From the IMG/VR virus record IMGVR_UViG_2778261270_000003: a DNA stretch of 30,023 nucleotides. One strand, 5' to 3'. The notes under the pieces are model-generated. The model searched no databases. It saw only the letters and a program-made list of their open reading frames with translations, and was not told the DNA's origin. Every line of letters begins with the position of its first letter. The first letter of the stretch is position 1. Made by a program: the position numbers and the translations under genes. Positions 1 through 13,370 of this stretch are shown here, in pieces. The DNA is from a virus. Its lineage: Duplodnaviria > Heunggongvirae > Uroviricota > Caudoviricetes.

Positions 1-19
1 CTATTTGATAAATATTAAA

Positions 20-1315
20 TTAATTTTTCATTGCTTCGTTATGGGGCATGGTTGGGGCAAACTCGCTTAACTGTGTATTTAACAAAGCTACCTGTGCATT
101 ATTGTTTTCAGACATCCATTTTCCGTATACCTGAAATACCATTTGCGCATCTGCATGGCCCATCTGGTTTGCTATAAATGCCGGGTTAGCACCAGCTGTC
201 AGCGACCAGCAGGCATAAGTATGTCTCGACTGATATGATTTTCGATGGCGGAGTCCGGCACGTTTTATCGCTGCGTCCCACATCTGCCTTATTGAGTCAA
301 CGGTAAAATGGTCACCATAATTTTTTACTCTCGCTGACACTTCAGGTTGAAAAACAAAGGTGCATTTTTGTTTTTCTGTTCTGCCATACTCTCTGAGGTG
401 AACATCAATGATATGCTCTTTGCTCAGTCTCGTTAATGTCATCTGACTCCGGAGAGCGTCGATTGCTGGCTTAATAAGATGAATGACCCGATTGGTTCCC
501 GCCTGTGTTTTTGGTACCGTGAAACGGTCTTTTGCTAAATTTCTCCTGATCATCATTGTTCCATTTTTCAGATCTATGTCCTCCCATCCAAGTGCACACA
601 GCTCACCAGGGCGAACTCCAGTATAAACAGAAACACACCATAAATTTTTTGCTTGCTGATTTCTGCACGCATCGATAAGACGGATAAATTCTTCCCGCGA
701 AAGAGGATCCGGAATGGTTCTTGATTCCTTTAATGGCGAGATCCCCTTAAACGGATTATCTGCCAGGTAACCGTTATCAACACCAAACTGGAACACGGCG
801 TTAAGATTTGTCATGTAATTATTTACAGTTACAGCCGATCTCCCTGGTTGTGTAACAATATAGTTACTTTTGGGGATCTGGTATCCAGTCAGTAACTCTT
901 TACGAACCTCCAGTAATTTTTCTTTATTAATCGATGAGGCAAGATTTTTTTCACCGATTATGCTCAGGATATTTTTGATGACGGCACGGTATGTGTTGAG
1001 TGATGTTTTGGCGACTTCAGTTTCTTTCAGTGCCAGAAATTTTTCAGCCAGTTCTTTTATGGTTAAATCTTGTCGGGCCTCACCAAATTTTTCCAGATTG
1101 CGTGAGGAGGGAAACTGTTTTGCATAGTCGAAAACACCAGTTTTTATTGCGTAACAAACAGAGGAGCGTAGTTCACCTGCAACGCGCCTGTTTTTTGCTG
1201 TGTCAGGAACCCCCAGATTTTCCCTGACTCTTACGTCTTTATAAACAAACCAGATACGTAATTTCCCTCCATGGTTTTCCACGCCTGTCGGATATTTCAT
1301 TTCAACTTCTCTCAT
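20..1315 (-). CDS. Phage tyrosine integrase (site-specific recombinase)
   Basis: 431-aa ORF at the prophage edge. C-terminal region has tyrosine-recombinase-like motifs (SRHTYACW ... HADAQMVFQVYGKW). Canonical position next to an excisionase-like gene. Alternative ATG at 1300 (MKYPTG...). Confidence 0.85.
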   Translation of the reverse strand: MREVEMKYPTGVENHGGKLRIWFVYKDVRVRENLGVPDTAKNRRVAGELRSSVCYAIKTGVFDYAKQFPSSRNLEKFGEARQDLTIKELAEKFLALKETEVAKTSLNTYRAVIKNILSIIGEKNLASSINKEKLLEVRKELLTGYQIPKSNYIVTQPGRSAVTVNNYMTNLNAVFQFGVDNGYLADNPFKGISPLKESRTIPDPLSREEFIRLIDACRNQQAKNLWCVSVYTGVRPGELCALGWEDIDLKNGTMMIRRNLAKDRFTVPKTQAGTNRVIHLIKPAIDALRSQMTLTRLSKEHIIDVHLREYGRTEKQKCTFVFQPEVSARVKNYGDHFTVDSIRQMWDAAIKRAGLRHRKSYQSRHTYACWSLTAGANPAFIANQMGHADAQMVFQVYGKWMSENNNAQVALLNTQLSEFAPTMPHNEAMKN

Positions 1316-1334
1316 TAGTTAGTGTGGCTTTTAG

Positions 1335-1586
1335 TCAAGTAAGATGACGTCTTGGTCTCGCTGATGCCTGGCGCTCAATCCAGCGATCAATTTCTTCCAG
1401 GTTGTAAAAGCATGGACTGTTATCCCATGGCATACCGTCATGAGCGACATGCTTATATTCCCTTCCTTCCATAAACGATTTTTCCCGGGCCTTTTTTAAC
1501 GTACCTTTTTTTATTCCTTTCAGCGCAATTAACTGCTCTTCGGATACCCATTTGCCGGGAGAGACAATCATGATTACTTCGCTCAT
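1335..1586 (-). CDS. Excisionase-like small DNA-binding protein
   Basis: 83-aa ORF immediately upstream of int on the same strand, basic C-terminus (RQASARPRRHLT). Assignment is by position and size; start may be an internal Met (MIVSPGK...). Confidence 0.55.
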   Translation of the reverse strand: MSEVIMIVSPGKWVSEEQLIALKGIKKGTLKKAREKSFMEGREYKHVAHDGMPWDNSPCFYNLEEIDRWIERQASARPRRHLT

Positions 1587-1658
1587 CGATTTCTTTATCT
1601 CTTACATCAGACGAGCGCCGGTTGCAGAATACCAGTCACAACCGGCGACAGTTGAACA

Positions 1659-4145
1659 TTAAGAATCAGCCTGACTCGGGATCAGTTTTTGCCAGATAAC
1701 TGAAACGTATTTTGCCTGGTAACGGGCGTCATCAAGTGCATTATGGCGCTCACCTTCGAATGGAATAGCCGTTCTGGCATCGAAGTCTATGGCTTTCCCC
1801 AGCTCAACGATTGTGCGTACATCGCGATCGTTGTAGTAACGCCACGGGCAGGGGATCCCCTGCCGTTCGTATGAACGGCGCAAAATCGTGTTGTCGAAGT
1901 TGGCTCCATTTCCCCAAACCTGAACAAAAAATTCACCGGAGTTTTCGTCGATAAATTCTCGCAATTGTAACAGTGCATCATCTAACGGGATTTCATCGGT
2001 CATAATGGCAGATTGCGCTTCGCGTGATTGCTTAAGCCACCATTTAATGGTGTCCCGATCAATGACTCCGCCAGCAGTTTCCAGATCGATAGTCTTACTA
2101 AATTCCGGTCCCATATCTCCGGTTTGCGGATCGAAAAATATTGCACCTATTGAGATGATCGGGGCATCAGGATTTTTTCCCATGGTTTCAAGGTCGATCA
2201 TTAGATGGTCACACGTCCTGCTGGTGGATGTGATTTCGTGATGACCGTTCACCTTAATTGGGTGATCTGCCGTCTCGCCAGTTTCATTATCGCTATTGTG
2301 ATGCTGATTGCCGCCAGTGTTCTCCTTGTGTGGATGTTCAGCGCCTTCCATTTCCTCCGGATCATCTTCCTGAACTTCAACCTGATACTCTTCATCGAAT
2401 GTTTCTTGGTATGTTGCGTCGCCCATCACCGCGCCACAATCAGGGCAGTTGCCGCCGCCGGTCTGACCGCAGGCGGTGCAGACTTTTTCCACTTCCTGTT
2501 GCGCTACTGGTTCAGGCTGTTTCGTTTCTGGCTCGTTTTGTAACGCATTTGGACTGTTTTGTTCCGCTTTTTGGTAGTTCCGTTCCGATTCATGCTGGTT
2601 CTGGTTCACAGAATCGCGGGTCTGGAGCCCCTTAACCCATTTCGGATCATTCGGGTCACTAATCCCTTCAACAAATTCACCACGTGATGCAGCAAGCAAC
2701 TTATCGGCGTCAGGCTGGCTGATATTGGCTGCCTGCATAATTTTGTTTACTTCGTCAGCGGTAACTTTTATCGGCTCTGGTTGTTCTGAATCTTCAGCGG
2801 TATCTACATTTTGCGGTAAGCCCGTGTATGTGCCATTTTTTCGGGCAAAATATTCTTCTTTTGTGATTTCAGTGGCGCCAGCAGCCAGTGCCTTATCCAG
2901 ACCAGAGAGTTTGTTTGCGCGACCGTATTTTTCTCCGTCCTTATCTGCGAAGAGGAAATAGAACGGCCCCTCACGCTCTACAGATGGTTCAGCTTCCGGC
3001 GCGGTTTCATTTTTTGGGATATCAGATACCTCAGTTTCCACTGCATCAGTTTGTGTTTCTGATGACTGGAGAACATCAACAGTGCCCAGGTCTGTTTCTT
3101 CATTCTCAAACACGCCCTTTGTCGTCAGGTATTCGCAGATATATTTGTTCAGTGCTACGGGATCTTTGTGAATGTCGATCGGACGCTCACGGACAAGGCC
3201 AAAAATAGTTTGGCGGTCGTAGCGAAGGGCATCAGGCTGTTTGCGCATTGATGCCGAGATACGCTTCCAGTCTTCGCGGTCGTTGTCGATAACTTCTTTT
3301 TTTGCCCAGCGATGGATGCTGCCGTCAATGTTTCCGGCATCCACATCACTAGGCCAGAGAGCGTAGGCCAGTTCGTCATCCAGTGTTTTCCATGTCTGCT
3401 TGTATTCGCGATGAATGGCAGCAATGACCGGGCTGATTTTTCCTGTTGAATTTTCAGTGTACTGTTGATTGGCTCTGGCGCGGGCGAGATCAACAACAGA
3501 CGTGTATTTTCCGGTTTCCTTGCGTTCACCTTCGCGACGTTTTTTCCAGATGCGCATCTCTGCCTGAATTTCGGGCCATTTAGCACCAGGAATACATTTA
3601 TGCTTAACCCACCCAATGGCGTGCAACTTAAGCTCCGGATACATGGCGTTAACTTCTGGCATTTTCATCAACGCTTCAACGATATGTCCGTCGAATGTTG
3701 CCATGTCTTCCTGCAACAATTCCTGTGCGCTAATAACCATATCAACGGTGATGTTTTCACATGTGTCGAACTTAACCATGACAGCGTTCTGTACTTCAGG
3801 GGCCAGCTTGTCAAAAGTGACGTTCATCGGATCGGATTCAGTCTCAACCGGGACAAAAGAAGCAGACTCCTCATCCCAGCGGTTTTCCTGCATATATTCA
3901 GCATCCCATGAATCGAGGGCAGGGCGGGGTATGCCAGGTTTATCCTCGCAGACAATAAATTTATAAGCGCAGTCCTGAGCAGCCGGATAATGTTCCAGGA
4001 ATTGCCAGTGAAATTTTGCTCGAGCACGGCGTTCGTCGCCAGCTTCAATGGCTGTGGCTACAGCCACAGCGCCTTCTTCCCTTGTTGCCAGTTCGTCAGG
4101 AATAGCGGCGCAAATAAAGACTTTACTCATTTGTTTTAACCTCAT
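1659..4145 (-). CDS. Large prophage exonuclease with C-terminal DnaQ-like DEDDh 3'-5' exonuclease domain; central zinc ribbon and acidic linker
   Basis: 828-aa ORF. C-terminal Exo I (MIDLETMG), Exo II (NGANFDNTIL) and Exo III (HNALDDARYQAKY) motifs. Zinc-ribbon-like CTACGQTGGGNCPDCG and long acidic low-complexity segments. Probable start at ATG 4130 (MSKVF..., GAGG 9 nt upstream) rather than 4145. Confidence 0.8.
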   Translation of the reverse strand: MRLKQMSKVFICAAIPDELATREEGAVAVATAIEAGDERRARAKFHWQFLEHYPAAQDCAYKFIVCEDKPGIPRPALDSWDAEYMQENRWDEESASFVPVETESDPMNVTFDKLAPEVQNAVMVKFDTCENITVDMVISAQELLQEDMATFDGHIVEALMKMPEVNAMYPELKLHAIGWVKHKCIPGAKWPEIQAEMRIWKKRREGERKETGKYTSVVDLARARANQQYTENSTGKISPVIAAIHREYKQTWKTLDDELAYALWPSDVDAGNIDGSIHRWAKKEVIDNDREDWKRISASMRKQPDALRYDRQTIFGLVRERPIDIHKDPVALNKYICEYLTTKGVFENEETDLGTVDVLQSSETQTDAVETEVSDIPKNETAPEAEPSVEREGPFYFLFADKDGEKYGRANKLSGLDKALAAGATEITKEEYFARKNGTYTGLPQNVDTAEDSEQPEPIKVTADEVNKIMQAANISQPDADKLLAASRGEFVEGISDPNDPKWVKGLQTRDSVNQNQHESERNYQKAEQNSPNALQNEPETKQPEPVAQQEVEKVCTACGQTGGGNCPDCGAVMGDATYQETFDEEYQVEVQEDDPEEMEGAEHPHKENTGGNQHHNSDNETGETADHPIKVNGHHEITSTSRTCDHLMIDLETMGKNPDAPIISIGAIFFDPQTGDMGPEFSKTIDLETAGGVIDRDTIKWWLKQSREAQSAIMTDEIPLDDALLQLREFIDENSGEFFVQVWGNGANFDNTILRRSYERQGIPCPWRYYNDRDVRTIVELGKAIDFDARTAIPFEGERHNALDDARYQAKYVSVIWQKLIPSQADS

Positions 4146-5924: not shown

Positions 5925-6164
5925 ATGGGTAGCATTAACCTGCGTATTGACGATGAACTTAAAGCGCGTTCTTACGCCGCGCTTGAAAAAATGGGTGTAA
6001 CTCCTTCTGAAGCGCTTCGTCTCATGCTCGAGTATATCGCTGACAATGAACGCTTGCCGTTCAAACAGACACTCCTGAGTGATGAAGATGCTGAACTTGT
6101 GGAGATAGTGAAAGAACGGCTTCGTAATCCTAAGCCAGTACGTGTGACGCTGGATGAACTCTGA
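5925..6164 (+). CDS. relB: RelB antitoxin
   Basis: 79-aa product MGSINLRIDDELKARSYA...VRVTLDEL matches recalled E. coli RelB; overlaps relE by ATGA. Confidence 0.95.
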   Translation: MGSINLRIDDELKARSYAALEKMGVTPSEALRLMLEYIADNERLPFKQTLLSDEDAELVEIVKERLRNPKPVRVTLDEL

Positions 6165-6451
6165 TGGCGTATTTTCTGGATTTTGACGAGCGGGCACTAA
6201 AGGAATGGCGAAAGCTGGGCTCGACGGTACGTGAACAGTTGAAAAAGAAGCTGGTTGAAGTACTTGAGTCACCCCGGATTGAAGCAAACAAGCTCCGTGG
6301 TATGCCTGATTGTTACAAGATTAAGCTCCGGTCTTCAGGCTATCGCCTTGTATACCAGGTTATAGACGAGAAAGTTGTCGTTTTCGTGATTTCTGTTGGG
6401 AAAAGAGAACGCTCGGAAGTATATAGCGAGGCGGTCAAACGCATTCTCTGA
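6164..6451 (+). CDS. relE: RelE mRNA interferase toxin
   Basis: 95-aa product MAYFLDFDERALKEWRKLGSTVREQLKKKL... matches recalled RelE; translationally coupled to relB. Confidence 0.95.
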   Translation: MAYFLDFDERALKEWRKLGSTVREQLKKKLVEVLESPRIEANKLRGMPDCYKIKLRSSGYRLVYQVIDEKVVVFVISVGKRERSEVYSEAVKRIL

Positions 6452-6522
6452 ACCAAAGCATGACATCTCTGTTTCGCACCGAAGGTGACACTTCTGCTTT
6501 GCGTTGACAGGAGAAGCAGGCT

Positions 6523-6678
6523 ATGAAGCAGCAAAAGGCGATGTTAATCGCCCTGATCGTCATCTGTTTAACCGTCATAGTGACGGCACTGGTAACGAGG
6601 AAAGACCTCTGCGAGGTACGAATCCGAACCGGCCAGACGGAGGTCGCTGTCTTCACAGCTTACGAACCTGAGGAGTAA
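6523..6678 (+). CDS. hokD: Hok-family membrane toxin (HokD/RelF)
   Basis: Not in the ORF track (<60 aa). 51-aa ORF MKQQKAMLIALIVICLTVIVTALVTRKDLCEVRIRTGQTEVAVFTAYEPEE with N-terminal transmembrane helix and the Hok signature; third gene of the relBEF arrangement. Confidence 0.85.
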   Translation: MKQQKAMLIALIVICLTVIVTALVTRKDLCEVRIRTGQTEVAVFTAYEPEE

Positions 6679-7212: not shown

Positions 7213-7491
7213 ATGGCACGCAACGCAAAATATTACAATTCTGATAATTCGCCCGTTCTTGCCTGCACGCACGGGCGGTATTCTCACGCATTCAAGTCTG
7301 AATGGTTCCAGCACCCTCCATGCACTGCAGAACAGGCCGAATGGCTGATTCATTCTTACCGCAGGCGCGGGTTCGAGGTTAAGAAAGCTCTCAGTCTCGA
7401 CTATCGGCACTGGATAATCTCTGTCAGGCTGCCTTATTCCGAACGCCCACCACGTGCGTCCCGCACTTTCCAGCAACGGATCTGGAGGTAA
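7213..7491 (+). CDS. Hypothetical protein, translationally coupled to the downstream DUF968 gene
   Basis: 92-aa ORF with ATG start and GGAGAA RBS; its stop codon sits inside the GGAGG Shine-Dalgarno of the next gene (stop 7489-7491, next start 7493). No family recognised. Confidence 0.35.
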   Translation: MARNAKYYNSDNSPVLACTHGRYSHAFKSEWFQHPPCTAEQAEWLIHSYRRRGFEVKKALSLDYRHWIISVRLPYSERPPRASRTFQQRIWR

Positions 7492-7492
7492 C

Positions 7493-8542
7493 GTGCGGGT
7501 ATTACTTAGACCTGTTCTGGTGCCTGAGCTTGGGCTGGTGGTCCTTAAGCCGGGCCGTGAATCCATACAGATATTTCATAATCCTCGAGTGCTGGTGGAA
7601 CCGGAACCAAAAAGCATGCGTAATCTGCCATCCGGAGTCGTTCCTGCCGTTCGCCAGCCGCTGGCGGAAGACAAAACATTGCTGCCGTTTTTTAGTAACG
7701 AACGGGTGATTCGTGCTGCTGGCGGCGTTGGCGCATTGTCCGACTGGCTATTACGTCATGTTACATCCTGCCAGTGGCCTAATGGCGATTACCATCACAC
7801 TGAAACAGTCATTCACCGTTATGGTACCGGCGCAATGGTGTTGTGCTGGCACTGCGACAACCAACTGCGTGACCAGACATCGGAATCACTGGAGCTGCTT
7901 GCTCAACAAAATCTGACAGCATGGGTGATTGACGTCATCCGTCACGCAATAAGCGGTACGCAGGAGCGGGAATTATCTTTGGCTGAATTATCCTGGTGGG
8001 CGGTCTGCAATCAGGTGGTGGATGCACTACCTGAGGCTGTATCGCGTCGTTCGCTGGGATTACCAGCGGAAAAAATCTGCTCGGTGTACCGCGAAAGCGA
8101 CATCGTACCGGGAGAGCAGACCGCCACCAGCATATTGAAACAACGCACAAAAAATCTTGCACCGTTGCCTTACGCCCACCAGCAACAAAAATCACCACAG
8201 GAAAAGACGGTGGTAAGCATCACCGTTGATCCAGAGTCTCCGGAATCTTTCATGAAGCTGCCTAAACGTCGCCGCTGGGTTAAGGAGAAATACACACGTT
8301 GGGTTAAGACACAGCCGTGTGCTTGCTGCGGTATGCCAGCCGACGATCCGCATCATCTGATTGGTCACGGGCAGGGCGGAATGGGAACAAAAGCACATGA
8401 TCTCTTTGTGTTGCCTTTGTGCAGAAAGCATCACAACGAGCTGCATACGGATACAGTGGCATTTGAAGATAAGTATGGCTCCCAACTGGAGCTGATATTT
8501 CGTTTTATCGATCGCGCGCTGGCAATTGGCGTACTGGCGTAA
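7493..8542 (+). CDS. ydfU: YdfU-like DUF968 protein with C-terminal HNH-type zinc-binding nuclease motif
   Basis: 349 aa from GTG 7493 (GGAGG RBS); the track ORF begins at an upstream in-frame GTG 7454. C-terminus CACCGMPADDPHHLIGH...LPLCRKHHNELH is an HNH-like signature. Position between rem and Q as in Qin. Confidence 0.8.
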   Translation: MRVLLRPVLVPELGLVVLKPGRESIQIFHNPRVLVEPEPKSMRNLPSGVVPAVRQPLAEDKTLLPFFSNERVIRAAGGVGALSDWLLRHVTSCQWPNGDYHHTETVIHRYGTGAMVLCWHCDNQLRDQTSESLELLAQQNLTAWVIDVIRHAISGTQERELSLAELSWWAVCNQVVDALPEAVSRRSLGLPAEKICSVYRESDIVPGEQTATSILKQRTKNLAPLPYAHQQQKSPQEKTVVSITVDPESPESFMKLPKRRRWVKEKYTRWVKTQPCACCGMPADDPHHLIGHGQGGMGTKAHDLFVLPLCRKHHNELHTDTVAFEDKYGSQLELIFRFIDRALAIGVLA

Positions 8543-9942: not shown

Positions 9943-10242
9943 AAAAATTCCTTAATACTGATAACTTGGCGCACTATACACACGTTCCTGAAGAAAGCTA
10001 TAGTTTTTTGATGGGGTTGAAGATGGCTGGATGTCTAAAATAAACATTGCTTCATATGTTCAACTATGCGTTAATGATTGCGTCGGTTTGAAGAACAGAC
10101 GATATACGAAGTAGTTTACTAAAGCAGTTCTCATTTCAGGTGTTATTCACTTATTCCTTCTTTGAGTCTCTCCAATTAAGTACGAAGTCGTTTCTGTTAT
10201 GCAAACCATTTATGCCGAAAGGCTCAAGTTAAGGAATGTAGA

Positions 10243-10458
10243 ATGTCAAATAAAATGACTGGTTTAGTAAAATGGTTTAACGCTGATAAAGGTTTCGGCT
10301 TTATTTCTCCTGTTGATGGTAGTAAAGATGTGTTTGTGCATTTTTCTGCGATTCAGAATGATAATTATCGAACCTTATTTGAAGGTCAAAAGGTTACCTT
10401 CTCTATAGAGAGTGGTGCTAAAGGTCCTGCAGCAGCAAATGTCATCATTACTGATTAA
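10243..10458 (+). CDS. cspB: Cold-shock protein CspB
   Basis: 71-aa product [37 protein letters not shown]... with RNP1/RNP2 motifs; long AT-rich 5' leader. Confidence 0.9.
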
Positions 10459-10739
10459 AATTCATCGCTCGTCTGTATACGATAACGAAGAAGGCTGATG
10501 CCTGAGTAGAGATACGGACAGAGTAGTGAATATTGGATCTCTTTAATAAAAAGTAAGGAGGTCCAATACATGAAACAATGGCTAGCATATTTGGCAAAAT
10601 CTTAATCAGGAAAAGTATGCTAACCATTGTGGTGAAGTGCAGGTTTGCTGCATGAATAGTTTTACAGCAGAAGCTAACTGCTGGCATGGCAAAACAAAGT
10701 GCGTAAGTGGATGACTCCCACAAAAAGCACCACAATCTC

Positions 10740-12767: not shown

Positions 12768-13129
12768 GGTAATATTAAATCGGAACATTTACATCGCGGA
12801 ATGTAAAATTTAAATAAAAAGGACTCTTCCATGAGCCAAAATTCCTGAAATCTTAAGGGTAAGATAAAAGGTCTTAATCAGAATGACACGTTTTATTAAT
12901 AAATAAAGCTATTCTTTCATTGCTGTGTTTTTCTTTACAAAAGTAATCCTTGCTATGGGTGGTTAATCATGCGTTAATGGTGTTCTGGTTTGTTACAAAT
13001 TTATCTGAAGCAGTCATTGTTATAATTTTATTATTTGTACCTCTTGAGATTTCCTTGTTGGTTTTTCTCTCTGATATTTTTTTTCGGACCATTCTGCCCA
13101 AGGGCTAATTTCTTCAAAAGGTAATAATT

Positions 13130-13342
13130 ATGTCTAACAAAATGACTGGCTTAGTGAAATGGTTTAACCCTGAAAAAGGTTTTGGTTTCATCACGCCGAA
13201 AGATGGCAGCAAAGATGTGTTTGTCCATTTCTCAGCAATTCAGAGCAACGATTTCAAAACATTAACTGAGAATCAGGAAGTTGAATTTGGTATTGAGAAC
13301 GGACCTAAAGGTCCTGCCGCTGTTCATGTAGTGGCGCTTTGA
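13130..13342 (+). CDS. cspI: Cold-shock protein CspI
   Basis: 70-aa product [42 protein letters not shown]...; long AT-rich leader upstream. Confidence 0.9.
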
Positions 13343-13370
13343 GGTAGACAATATTACAAACCATATTCAC

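Follow-up and report, generated by a model that had tools for sequence, protein, structure and literature searches.

A RecE-family scaffold carrying a predicted DexA-like 3′-5′ exonuclease domain in a Qin-type prophage without an annealase gene

Introduction

Why would a lambdoid prophage carry a very large exonuclease gene beside its excisionase and integrase genes, and no annealase to go with it? The question is raised by a gene at positions 1659-4130 (minus strand) of the IMG/VR virus record IMGVR_UViG_2778261270_000003, a stretch of 30,023 nucleotides that was analyzed as a whole and is referred to here as the window. A preliminary description of this DNA presented the gene product as an orphan, i.e., a giant exonuclease with a DnaQ-type domain, a long N-terminal region and no annealase partner. 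Here we examine where the parts of this protein come from, whether the missing annealase is peculiar to this copy, and what function the protein may have. Comparison of protein sequences and structural models indicates that the first ~630 residues are a RecE-family scaffold, and that the RecE nuclease has been replaced by one of a different type.

Much of the context is provided by the classification of lambdoid Rec modules by Zheng, Casjens, Davidson, Amundsen and Smith (Genome Res 2025; PMC12315714). There, a single-strand annealing protein (SAP) is absent from only 9 of 246 Rec modules; DnaQ-like 3′-5′ nucleases are found inside Rec modules, and RecE-like proteins without a nuclease domain are also reported. 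One type, named Tritos and represented by four phages with 7-21 top-strand Chi sites, has a nuclease without a SAP, a single-stranded-DNA-binding protein (SSB) or an anti-RecBCD protein. For lambdoid phages that have neither an annealase nor an anti-RecBCD protein, reliance on host RecBCD and Chi has been proposed (PMC12315714). As to RecE itself, the function of its N-terminal region was still listed as unknown in a 2023 review (PMC11611040).

Results

The C-terminal domain resembles T4 DexA

Residues are numbered here according to an 823-residue form of the protein; the numbering of the preliminary description, which is based on 828 residues, is obtained by adding five. The C-terminal domain, at residues 640-823 (1662-2213, minus strand), is a predicted DEDDh 3′-5′ exonuclease. 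The Pfam family PF16473 (Rv2179c-like 3′-5′ exoribonuclease) matches residues 647-818 of the 828-residue form with an E-value of 2.4e-67 (the cutoff being 27 bits), and the Exo I (D-x-E), Exo II (D) and Exo III (H-x4-D) motifs are all present. The catalytic residues D646, E648, D746, H796 and D801 are invariant in a nine-sequence alignment that covers five fused relatives, two stand-alone phage homologues and DexA of phage T4, a 3′-5′ DNA exonuclease (PMC12153337). In DexA, whose structure was solved by Kang et al. (NAR 2025; PMC12153337), D646/E648, D746 and H796/D801 correspond to D7/E9, D119 and H186/D191.

The AlphaFold model of residues 636-823 (predicted template-modeling score 0.78) adopts the RNase-H-like alpha/beta fold of DnaQ-type exonucleases. 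Among 112 PDB matches obtained with Foldseek at E ≤ 0.001, DexA (8KEL) is the best (E 3e-9, template-modeling score 0.69), followed by E. coli RNase T (E 2e-8) and then by a Cas2-associated DnaQ domain. DexA is also the sole match in a sequence search of the PDB (E 1.5e-6). The likeness thus extends to the fold and to identical catalytic residues (8KEL/8KEN), but overall identity to DexA is only about 20-27%, and the window domain lacks the DexA surface insertions and is fused to a scaffold of 630 residues. By contrast, neither Pfam, NCBIfam nor the PDB gave a match to a lambda Exo/YqaJ PD-(D/E)XK domain for the protein, and the Pfam scan gave none to PF12684, the RecE PD-(D/E)XK nuclease. The preliminary description was therefore right in seeing a complete DEDDh set near the C-terminus and in assigning the domain to the DnaQ/DEDDh type, rather than to the lambda-Exo/RecE fold. 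By alignment and model, the C-terminal domain has a two-metal DEDDh site like that of DexA and RNase T, with no catalytic residue missing.

The first ~630 residues belong to the RecE family

The rest of the protein has clear relatives of another kind. The NCBIfam model for exonuclease VIII matches residues 251-628 of the 828-residue form with 281.6 bits, which is below its equivalog cutoff of 1269 bits. RecE of the prophage Rac-SA53 is 74% identical over residues 474-621, including a zinc ribbon, and 27% identical over residues 262-336. A profile of the first ~240 residues aligns with that of the RecE N-terminus (PF06630) over 232 columns, with an hhalign probability of 98% and an E-value of 2.9e-13. 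On this profile evidence, the N-terminal module, which Pfam names YdfE_N, is a remote homologue of the RecE N-terminus.

The closest comparison comes from a protein-database search with residues 1-635, which retrieved proteins of 900 residues that are 89-97% identical over ~630 residues. The Pfam architecture of these variants is YdfE_N + YdfE_C + DUF3799, the last being the RecE PD-(D/E)XK nuclease, whereas that of the window protein is YdfE_N + YdfE_C + Rv2179c-like. In a pairwise alignment with one such variant, P0080, homology stops at about residue 627, within an acidic linker. That is, these alignments show the first ~630 residues to be a RecE-family scaffold, on which, at about residue 627, the RecE PD-(D/E)XK nuclease appears replaced by a DexA/RNase-T-like DEDDh domain. 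The RecE proteins of Rac-type prophages, P0080 among them, have in common with the window protein their entire non-nuclease part and their position in the early-left operon. They differ from it in the nuclease, which is of the PD-(D/E)XK type (5′-3′; PDB 3H4R) in RecE and of the DEDDh type (3′-5′) here, and in the genes recT, lar and ydaC, which are absent downstream of the window gene. In view of these matches, the protein can no longer be called an orphan, and its comparison with exodeoxyribonuclease VIII has a divided outcome: the non-nuclease part is common to both, but the nuclease domain differs and the exonuclease VIII score stays below cutoff.

Domain map of the scaffold

An AlphaFold model of residues 1-635, computed from a 48-sequence alignment, has a mean predicted local distance difference test (pLDDT) score of 73 and contains four confident modules, which it resolves at residues 1-225, 245-345, 388-435 and ~455-500. 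We also calculated the ratio of nonsynonymous to synonymous substitution rates (dN/dS) along the gene, against the 89% identical copy in mEp460_ev081. Module N1 (residues 1-230, Pfam YdfE_N; 3441-4130, minus strand, as are all features of the gene) consists of an alpha/beta lobe, residues 1-95, and a helical lobe; its pLDDT exceeds 90 up to about residue 200, and its dN/dS is 0.08. The helical module N2 (residues 245-345; 3096-3398), with a pLDDT of ~90, is the one most widely common to RecE-like proteins in a BLAST module map. A disordered acidic linker follows at residues 346-385 (2976-3095), with a pLDDT of ~30-40 over residues 346-382 and a dN/dS of 0.67. Module M1 (residues 386-440; 2811-2975) comprises two beta-hairpins plus helices, with a pLDDT of 90-96 and a dN/dS of 0.055. 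Module M2 (residues 455-500; 2631-2768), recognized in the model and by sequence comparison, has two helices and then a conserved GEFVEGISDPNDPKW motif, and is found in Rac RecE as well.

Next comes the zinc ribbon (residues 548-570; 2421-2489), in which C551, C554, C562 and C565 form a CxxC-x7-CxxC pattern and which is modeled with moderate confidence, and after it a second acidic disordered linker (residues 571-635; 2226-2420), delimited by composition, model and dN/dS. Residues 571-600 include 13 aspartates or glutamates and no lysine or arginine. Both elements, the zinc ribbon and the acidic linker, are thus located ahead of the nuclease as previously described. Altogether the model predicts disordered linkers at about residues 346-382, 440-453, 502-547 and 571-635. 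It is no longer the case, however, that the N-terminal ~450 residues lack an assignable motif, since the Pfam families YdfE_N (PF27430) and YdfE_C (PF27432) now cover this region. A profile of the 48 scaffold sequences retrieved a single entry among PDB sequences, 3H4R, which was matched through the PD-(D/E)XK members of the alignment.

The dN/dS values follow this map: they are 0.06-0.2 in every folded module and reach 0.6-0.8 in linkers only. The folded parts of the gene are thus under purifying selection and the linkers near-neutral, and the multi-module protein is therefore under selection as a whole.

The family is narrow, with 247 clusters at 50% identity among 1.84 billion representatives, and strongly mosaic, in that N1, N2, M1, M2 and the zinc ribbon occur in varying combinations. 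The zinc-ribbon module is present in 8 of 50 representatives, with all four cysteines (CxxC-x7-CxxC) in every relative that has it; it is therefore optional within the family, and it accompanies both nuclease types. The C-terminal end may be DEDDh, PD-(D/E)XK, or without a recognizable nuclease. Seven scaffold relatives of 700-790 residues (P0126, P0129, P0134, P0135, P0153, P0168 and P0187) have neither a Pfam nuclease nor any other Pfam domain, and so the scaffold can exist without a nuclease. These proteins probably correspond to the 'RecE-2' proteins of Zheng et al.

The annealase is systematically absent next to the DEDDh type

In the window, the exonuclease gene is followed directly by the gene for an excisionase of the DUF1233 family (xis; 1335-1586, minus strand), with no recT between the two, and then by the integrase gene (int; 20-1315, minus strand), as identified from annotated contexts and an open reading frame (ORF) scan of the window. 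The same direct succession of DEDDh gene and xis is seen in E. coli SCU-118, in E. coli O55:H7 USDA5905 and in the phages PhiR42_1, Tritos and mEp460_ev081. Three more distant DEDDh fusions (P0241, P0122 and P0128), which have other N-termini and other types of xis and int, likewise lead directly into these genes. All five DEDDh-fusion lineages examined therefore run straight into xis/int, and they do so on four different N-termini, namely the Qin/Tritos type and those of P0241, P0122 and P0128. In the relatives, the gene is part of the early-left operon, where dicB/ydfD precede it and xis/int follow.

The PD-(D/E)XK type is arranged differently. At two loci that encode the 900-residue variant, recT comes next, overlapping the stop codon, and is followed by lar (at one locus only), ydaC, which belongs to DUF1187, and finally xis and int; the loci occupy the Rac attachment site. 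Rac-SA53 has this gene order too, so that recT is next, with xis and int after it, in all three PD-(D/E)XK-type loci examined.

We also compared the 80 best further loci in IMG/VR, which are near-identical to that of the window. The DEDDh domain is reached in 74 of the 80, and dicB and ydfD lie upstream in 79; RecT occurs in none of the 80, nor does a PD-(D/E)XK domain. Within the window, a Pfam scan of the non-obvious ORFs detected no RecT/Bet/Erf-type protein, and neither an annealase nor an SSB or anti-RecBCD protein is found among the Pfam-scanned window ORFs or the annotated genes of intact relatives. The absence of an adjacent annealase is thus as first described. Because the DEDDh lineages and the 80 best IMG/VR loci are without RecT, while the PD-(D/E)XK loci have recT, the gene contexts indicate that the missing annealase is systematic for the DEDDh type. 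It is not an effect of prophage decay, since intact relatives likewise have no adjacent annealase.

The window contains six Chi octamers (GCTGGTGG), against 1.18 expected, a number reached by none of 100 shuffled sequences; PhiR42_1 has the same count. They are located at 2220, 7534, 7591 and 12158 on the plus strand and at 8124 and 8176 on the minus strand. Four of them lie within ydfU, as two close pairs on opposite strands, and one lies within the exonuclease gene.

The gene is an intact form of ydfE in a Tritos-type module

Rec modules with a nuclease and no annealase have already been published as the Tritos type, and the gene itself is known. The Tritos exonuclease (CAH1234810.1) is 99.0% identical to the window protein over all 823 residues. 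The Tritos operon order, ydfA-ydfB-ydfC-dicF-dicB-ydfD-exo-xis-int, is that of the window type, and both are without a SAP, an SSB or an anti-RecBCD protein and are enriched in Chi. In contrast to Tritos, the window is without the genes upstream of exo and without the immunity and replication region. Judged by protein identity and operon order, the window gene belongs to a Tritos-type, nuclease-only lambdoid Rec module.

In E. coli K-12, the same gene at the same locus is the Qin pseudogene ydfE, which adjoins rspB and lies downstream of ydfD/dicB. K-12 ydfE keeps only the N-terminal ~256 codons and then breaks off at an IS2 insertion, where the remaining codons, xis and the beginning of intQ are missing. 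The window gene is therefore the intact form of ydfE, and the K-12 copy a truncated remnant of it.

Stand-alone relatives of the DEDDh domain also occur in lambdoid phages. mEp460 gp26, ST64B Sb30 and epsilon34 gp34 are 56-60% identical to residues 640-823 and lie in the early-left operon like the window gene, but they are only ~180-190 residues long and have no scaffold. mEp460 gp26, at 60% identity, is also located immediately before xis. epsilon34 gp34, unlike the window gene, has recombination partners, as it stands between SSB and Abc2 in a tight module with a putative annealase. The simplest history would be that a stand-alone DEDDh gene at the int-proximal end of the operon was joined to a RecE-type scaffold, and that the RecE nuclease domain and recT were lost in the process.

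The reading frame and its start

The preliminary description gave a protein of 828 residues. The ORF at 1659-4145 (minus strand) is present, and 828 residues is its longest reading. Both RefSeq and GenBank, however, place the start at the ATG at 4130, five codons later, which yields 823 residues (WP_000048342.1, XSB42569.1) and a gene of 1659-4130 with its stop codon at 1659-1661. A GAGG Shine-Dalgarno sequence at 4140-4143, well spaced as a ribosome-binding site for the start at 4130, sits inside the five extra codons and is overlapped by the upstream in-frame ATG (4143-4145; the two together span 4140-4145, minus strand). For this reason, the 823-residue form seems the likelier product. The upstream ATG is native, since two relatives (L002 and L004) have it too.

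The 823-residue protein is 100% identical to PhiR42_1 XSB42569.1 and to RefSeq WP_000048342.1, an entry labeled 'exonuclease' or '3′-5′ exonuclease', and is matched end to end by PHROG 2082. The 90%-identity cluster that contains it has 23,183 member sequences. The full-length gene is found in the sequenced phage genome records of PhiR42_1, HannyBb, Tritos, mEp460_ev081 and Evi. A search for membership in a defense system led to rejection of that assignment, PADLOC giving a weak generic DEDDh match only (E 1.8e-5).

A deletion upstream of the gene in this copy

The upstream side of the gene is disrupted in the window. At 4145|4146, exactly 5′ of the upstream ATG, there is a blunt deletion junction whose right side lies inside an ISNCY transposase pseudogene and does not coincide with an ORF boundary; no microhomology was found at the junction. 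Relatives carry between 3.6 kb (SCU-118) and 7.2 kb (PhiR42_1, O55:H7 USDA5905) at this point. The missing block contains ydfD, dicB, dicF, ydfC/B/A, dicA/dicC (the cI/cro equivalents) and part of the ISNCY element, as well as replication genes and cII-like, O-like and methyltransferase genes, so that the prophage as it stands in the window has no immunity and replication region. In no relative does this block hold an annealase, and the conclusion on the annealase is therefore independent of the deletion.

The two sides of the junction have different nearest relatives: positions 1-4145 are 100% identical to Escherichia phage PhiR42_1 (PV340562.1), to which the remainder (4146-30023) is 98.6% identical, and positions 5100-30023 are closest to O55:H7 USDA5905, at 99.9%. 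Searches of 5,426 complete E. coli genomes, IMG/VR and the JGI metagenomes did not recover the junction, which may reflect a deletion that is rare in nature, a misassembly or an edit. Because the operon and promoter region are lost, and no promoter-like site was detected on the strand of the gene within 1.4 kb upstream (to 5600), expression of this particular copy appears doubtful, even though the ribosome-binding site is kept.

The remainder of the window

The window represents an E. coli lambdoid prophage of the Qin type, which in E. coli genomes is located next to ynfA-rspAB. From left to right, the exonuclease gene is followed by the ISNCY remnant with ydfW, and by flxA, ydfV, relBE, hokD, rem, ydfU, Q, the cold-shock genes and the lysis genes; the head and tail genes beyond them form a lambda-like module. 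The relB-relE and hokD toxin-antitoxin genes (5925-6678) are placed after the ISNCY remnant and before rem/ydfU, a position that they also have in K-12 Qin. ydfU (7454-8542, plus strand; DUF968) has weak Pfam matches to HNHc_6 (E 6.8e-6) and RecA_dep_nuc (E 0.004), and is a second candidate DNA-transaction nuclease in this annealase-less phage type. The prophage cold-shock genes cspB and cspI are preceded by two full-length RNA thermoregulator leaders of the cspA type (Rfam RF01766; 159 and 111 bits), which lie at 10082-10474 and 12984-13369 (plus strand). At ~15000, G+C content rises sharply, from 0.35-0.45 in the lysis and cold-shock region to 0.55-0.60 in the lambda-like terminase, head and tail genes, a step that marks a mosaic boundary.

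Discussion

We propose, with a probability of roughly 0.7, that the window gene encodes an early-left-operon 3′-5′ nuclease of Qin/Tritos-type lambdoid prophages, built on a RecE scaffold and needing no annealase. That its substrate is DNA and not RNA, when it is expressed and what its biological role is are points that we infer. In intact relatives, the protein would be made during lytic growth from a leftward promoter repressed by DicA/cI. The scaffold would bring the tethered DEDDh domain to its substrate, and this domain would trim nucleotides off DNA 3′ ends by two-metal catalysis. Since 3′-5′ digestion leaves no 3′ single-stranded tails for RecT/Bet/Erf, an annealase would be dispensable and would not be kept; the event that replaced the nuclease would also have taken away what lies downstream of recE in Rac-type prophages, i.e., recT, lar and ydaC. 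Recombination-dependent replication would then be left to host RecA and RecBCD; the Chi excess agrees with this, as does the lack of a gene for Gam or Abc2. As candidates for a specific role we consider end trimming, scavenging of host DNA as with DexA, and modulation of RecBCD substrates.

Several observations weigh against this proposal. The nuclease activity and the substrate, for this protein and its fused relatives alike, are predictions from sequence and models; in fold, RNase T matches almost as well as DexA does, and PF16473 takes its name from an exoribonuclease, Rv2179c of M. tuberculosis. As for the scaffold, structure prediction extended to residues 1-635 did produce confident modules, but a Foldseek search with the model found no structural relative in the PDB or BFVD at E ≤ 0.001. 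The contrast in gene context involves three PD-(D/E)XK loci only, and the Chi excess is modest, with four sites on the plus strand and two on the minus strand. Lastly, Zheng et al. regard Rec modules of one or two genes as 'somewhat suspect' as to function, and state that DnaQ-type exonucleases inhibit recombination more often than they promote it (PMC12315714).

Other functions should thus be considered. The protein could be an anti-phage, superinfection-excluding nuclease of the HREX type, which selectively digests modified DNA such as the 5-hydroxymethylcytosine (5hmC) DNA of incoming T-even phages. The precedent is EcD (HREX; HAK9828821.1), a stand-alone DexA homologue of E. coli that is reported to digest 5hmC DNA/T4 DNA and, when plasmid-borne, to protect against T4 (PMC12153337); we set the window protein beside EcD by its published description only. 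The window domain is a relative of DexA with all catalytic residues, and it is 60% identical to a stand-alone prophage exonuclease, mEp460 gp26. The residues with which DexA reportedly reads 5hmC are not conserved, however: in the nine-sequence alignment, W152 and D169 correspond to Y766 and A780, and the first of these positions is Y or C in the other fused relatives. The mismatch at D169 is softened by a three-sequence alignment, which put a nearby aspartate there, i.e., this position depends on the alignment. As judged from its context, moreover, the gene is located in a repressed early-left operon and not where a lysogen would express it, and the weak PADLOC match is a generic one. We therefore consider a defensive function unlikely. 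Still less probable, in our view, is an RNA-directed 3′-5′ exoribonuclease akin to Rv2179c or RNase T, which would trim or degrade host or phage RNAs during lytic growth. The name of PF16473 and the good fold matches to RNase T, Orn, ERI and REXO2 speak for such an activity. Against it, the best match by both sequence and fold is a DNA exonuclease, DexA; the same scaffold bears a DNA nuclease in RecE; and the stand-alone homologue in epsilon34 is part of a SAP-SSB-exonuclease-Abc2 recombination module.

It might also be that the fusion has no function, having arisen by chance as prophages decayed and persisting as a passenger of cryptic Qin prophages. The state of individual copies would agree with this notion, as the upstream operon is deleted in the window, with no promoter-like site in the adjacent 1.4 kb, and the K-12 copy is truncated by IS2; the suspicion that Zheng et al. 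attach to one-gene Rec modules (PMC12315714) points the same way. For the family, however, we regard it as very unlikely. A relic would not be expected to show low dN/dS in every folded module and high values in linkers only, nor invariant catalytic residues; in addition, the full-length gene is present in phage genome records and in a cluster of 23,183 proteins, and fusions of this type are found with four different N-termini.

A broader interpretation, which we put forward tentatively and consider rather doubtful, is that the RecE-family scaffold is a platform independent of polarity, able to carry a 5′-3′ nuclease, a 3′-5′ nuclease or none, and that the job of the DEDDh version is unrelated to single-strand annealing. 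One possibility under this interpretation is that the DEDDh version shapes phage or host DNA ends so that host RecBCD and Chi drive phage replication; another is that it acts as a tethered anti-phage or anti-defense nuclease.

The intact form of ydfE and the Tritos-type module were known before; what is added here is the finding that nuclease domain and recT change in concert while the scaffold stays near-identical, the remote homology of YdfE_N to RecE, and the domain map of the scaffold. Our literature search found no functional work on ydfE or Rv2179c. The gene is very common, as its 23,183-member cluster at 90% identity attests, and phage records often label its product 'exodeoxyribonuclease VIII', a misnomer as far as the nuclease domain is concerned. 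Nature has in effect carried out an experiment, in which a scaffold at 89-97% identity is combined either with a 5′-3′ nuclease and RecT or with a 3′-5′ nuclease and no annealase. This natural swap bears on how lambdoid phages without an annealase and an anti-RecBCD protein replicate, and on the role of the large N-terminal region of RecE. If the platform interpretation were true, RecE would owe an independent function to its N-terminal two-thirds, and the natural domain swap would allow this to be tested.

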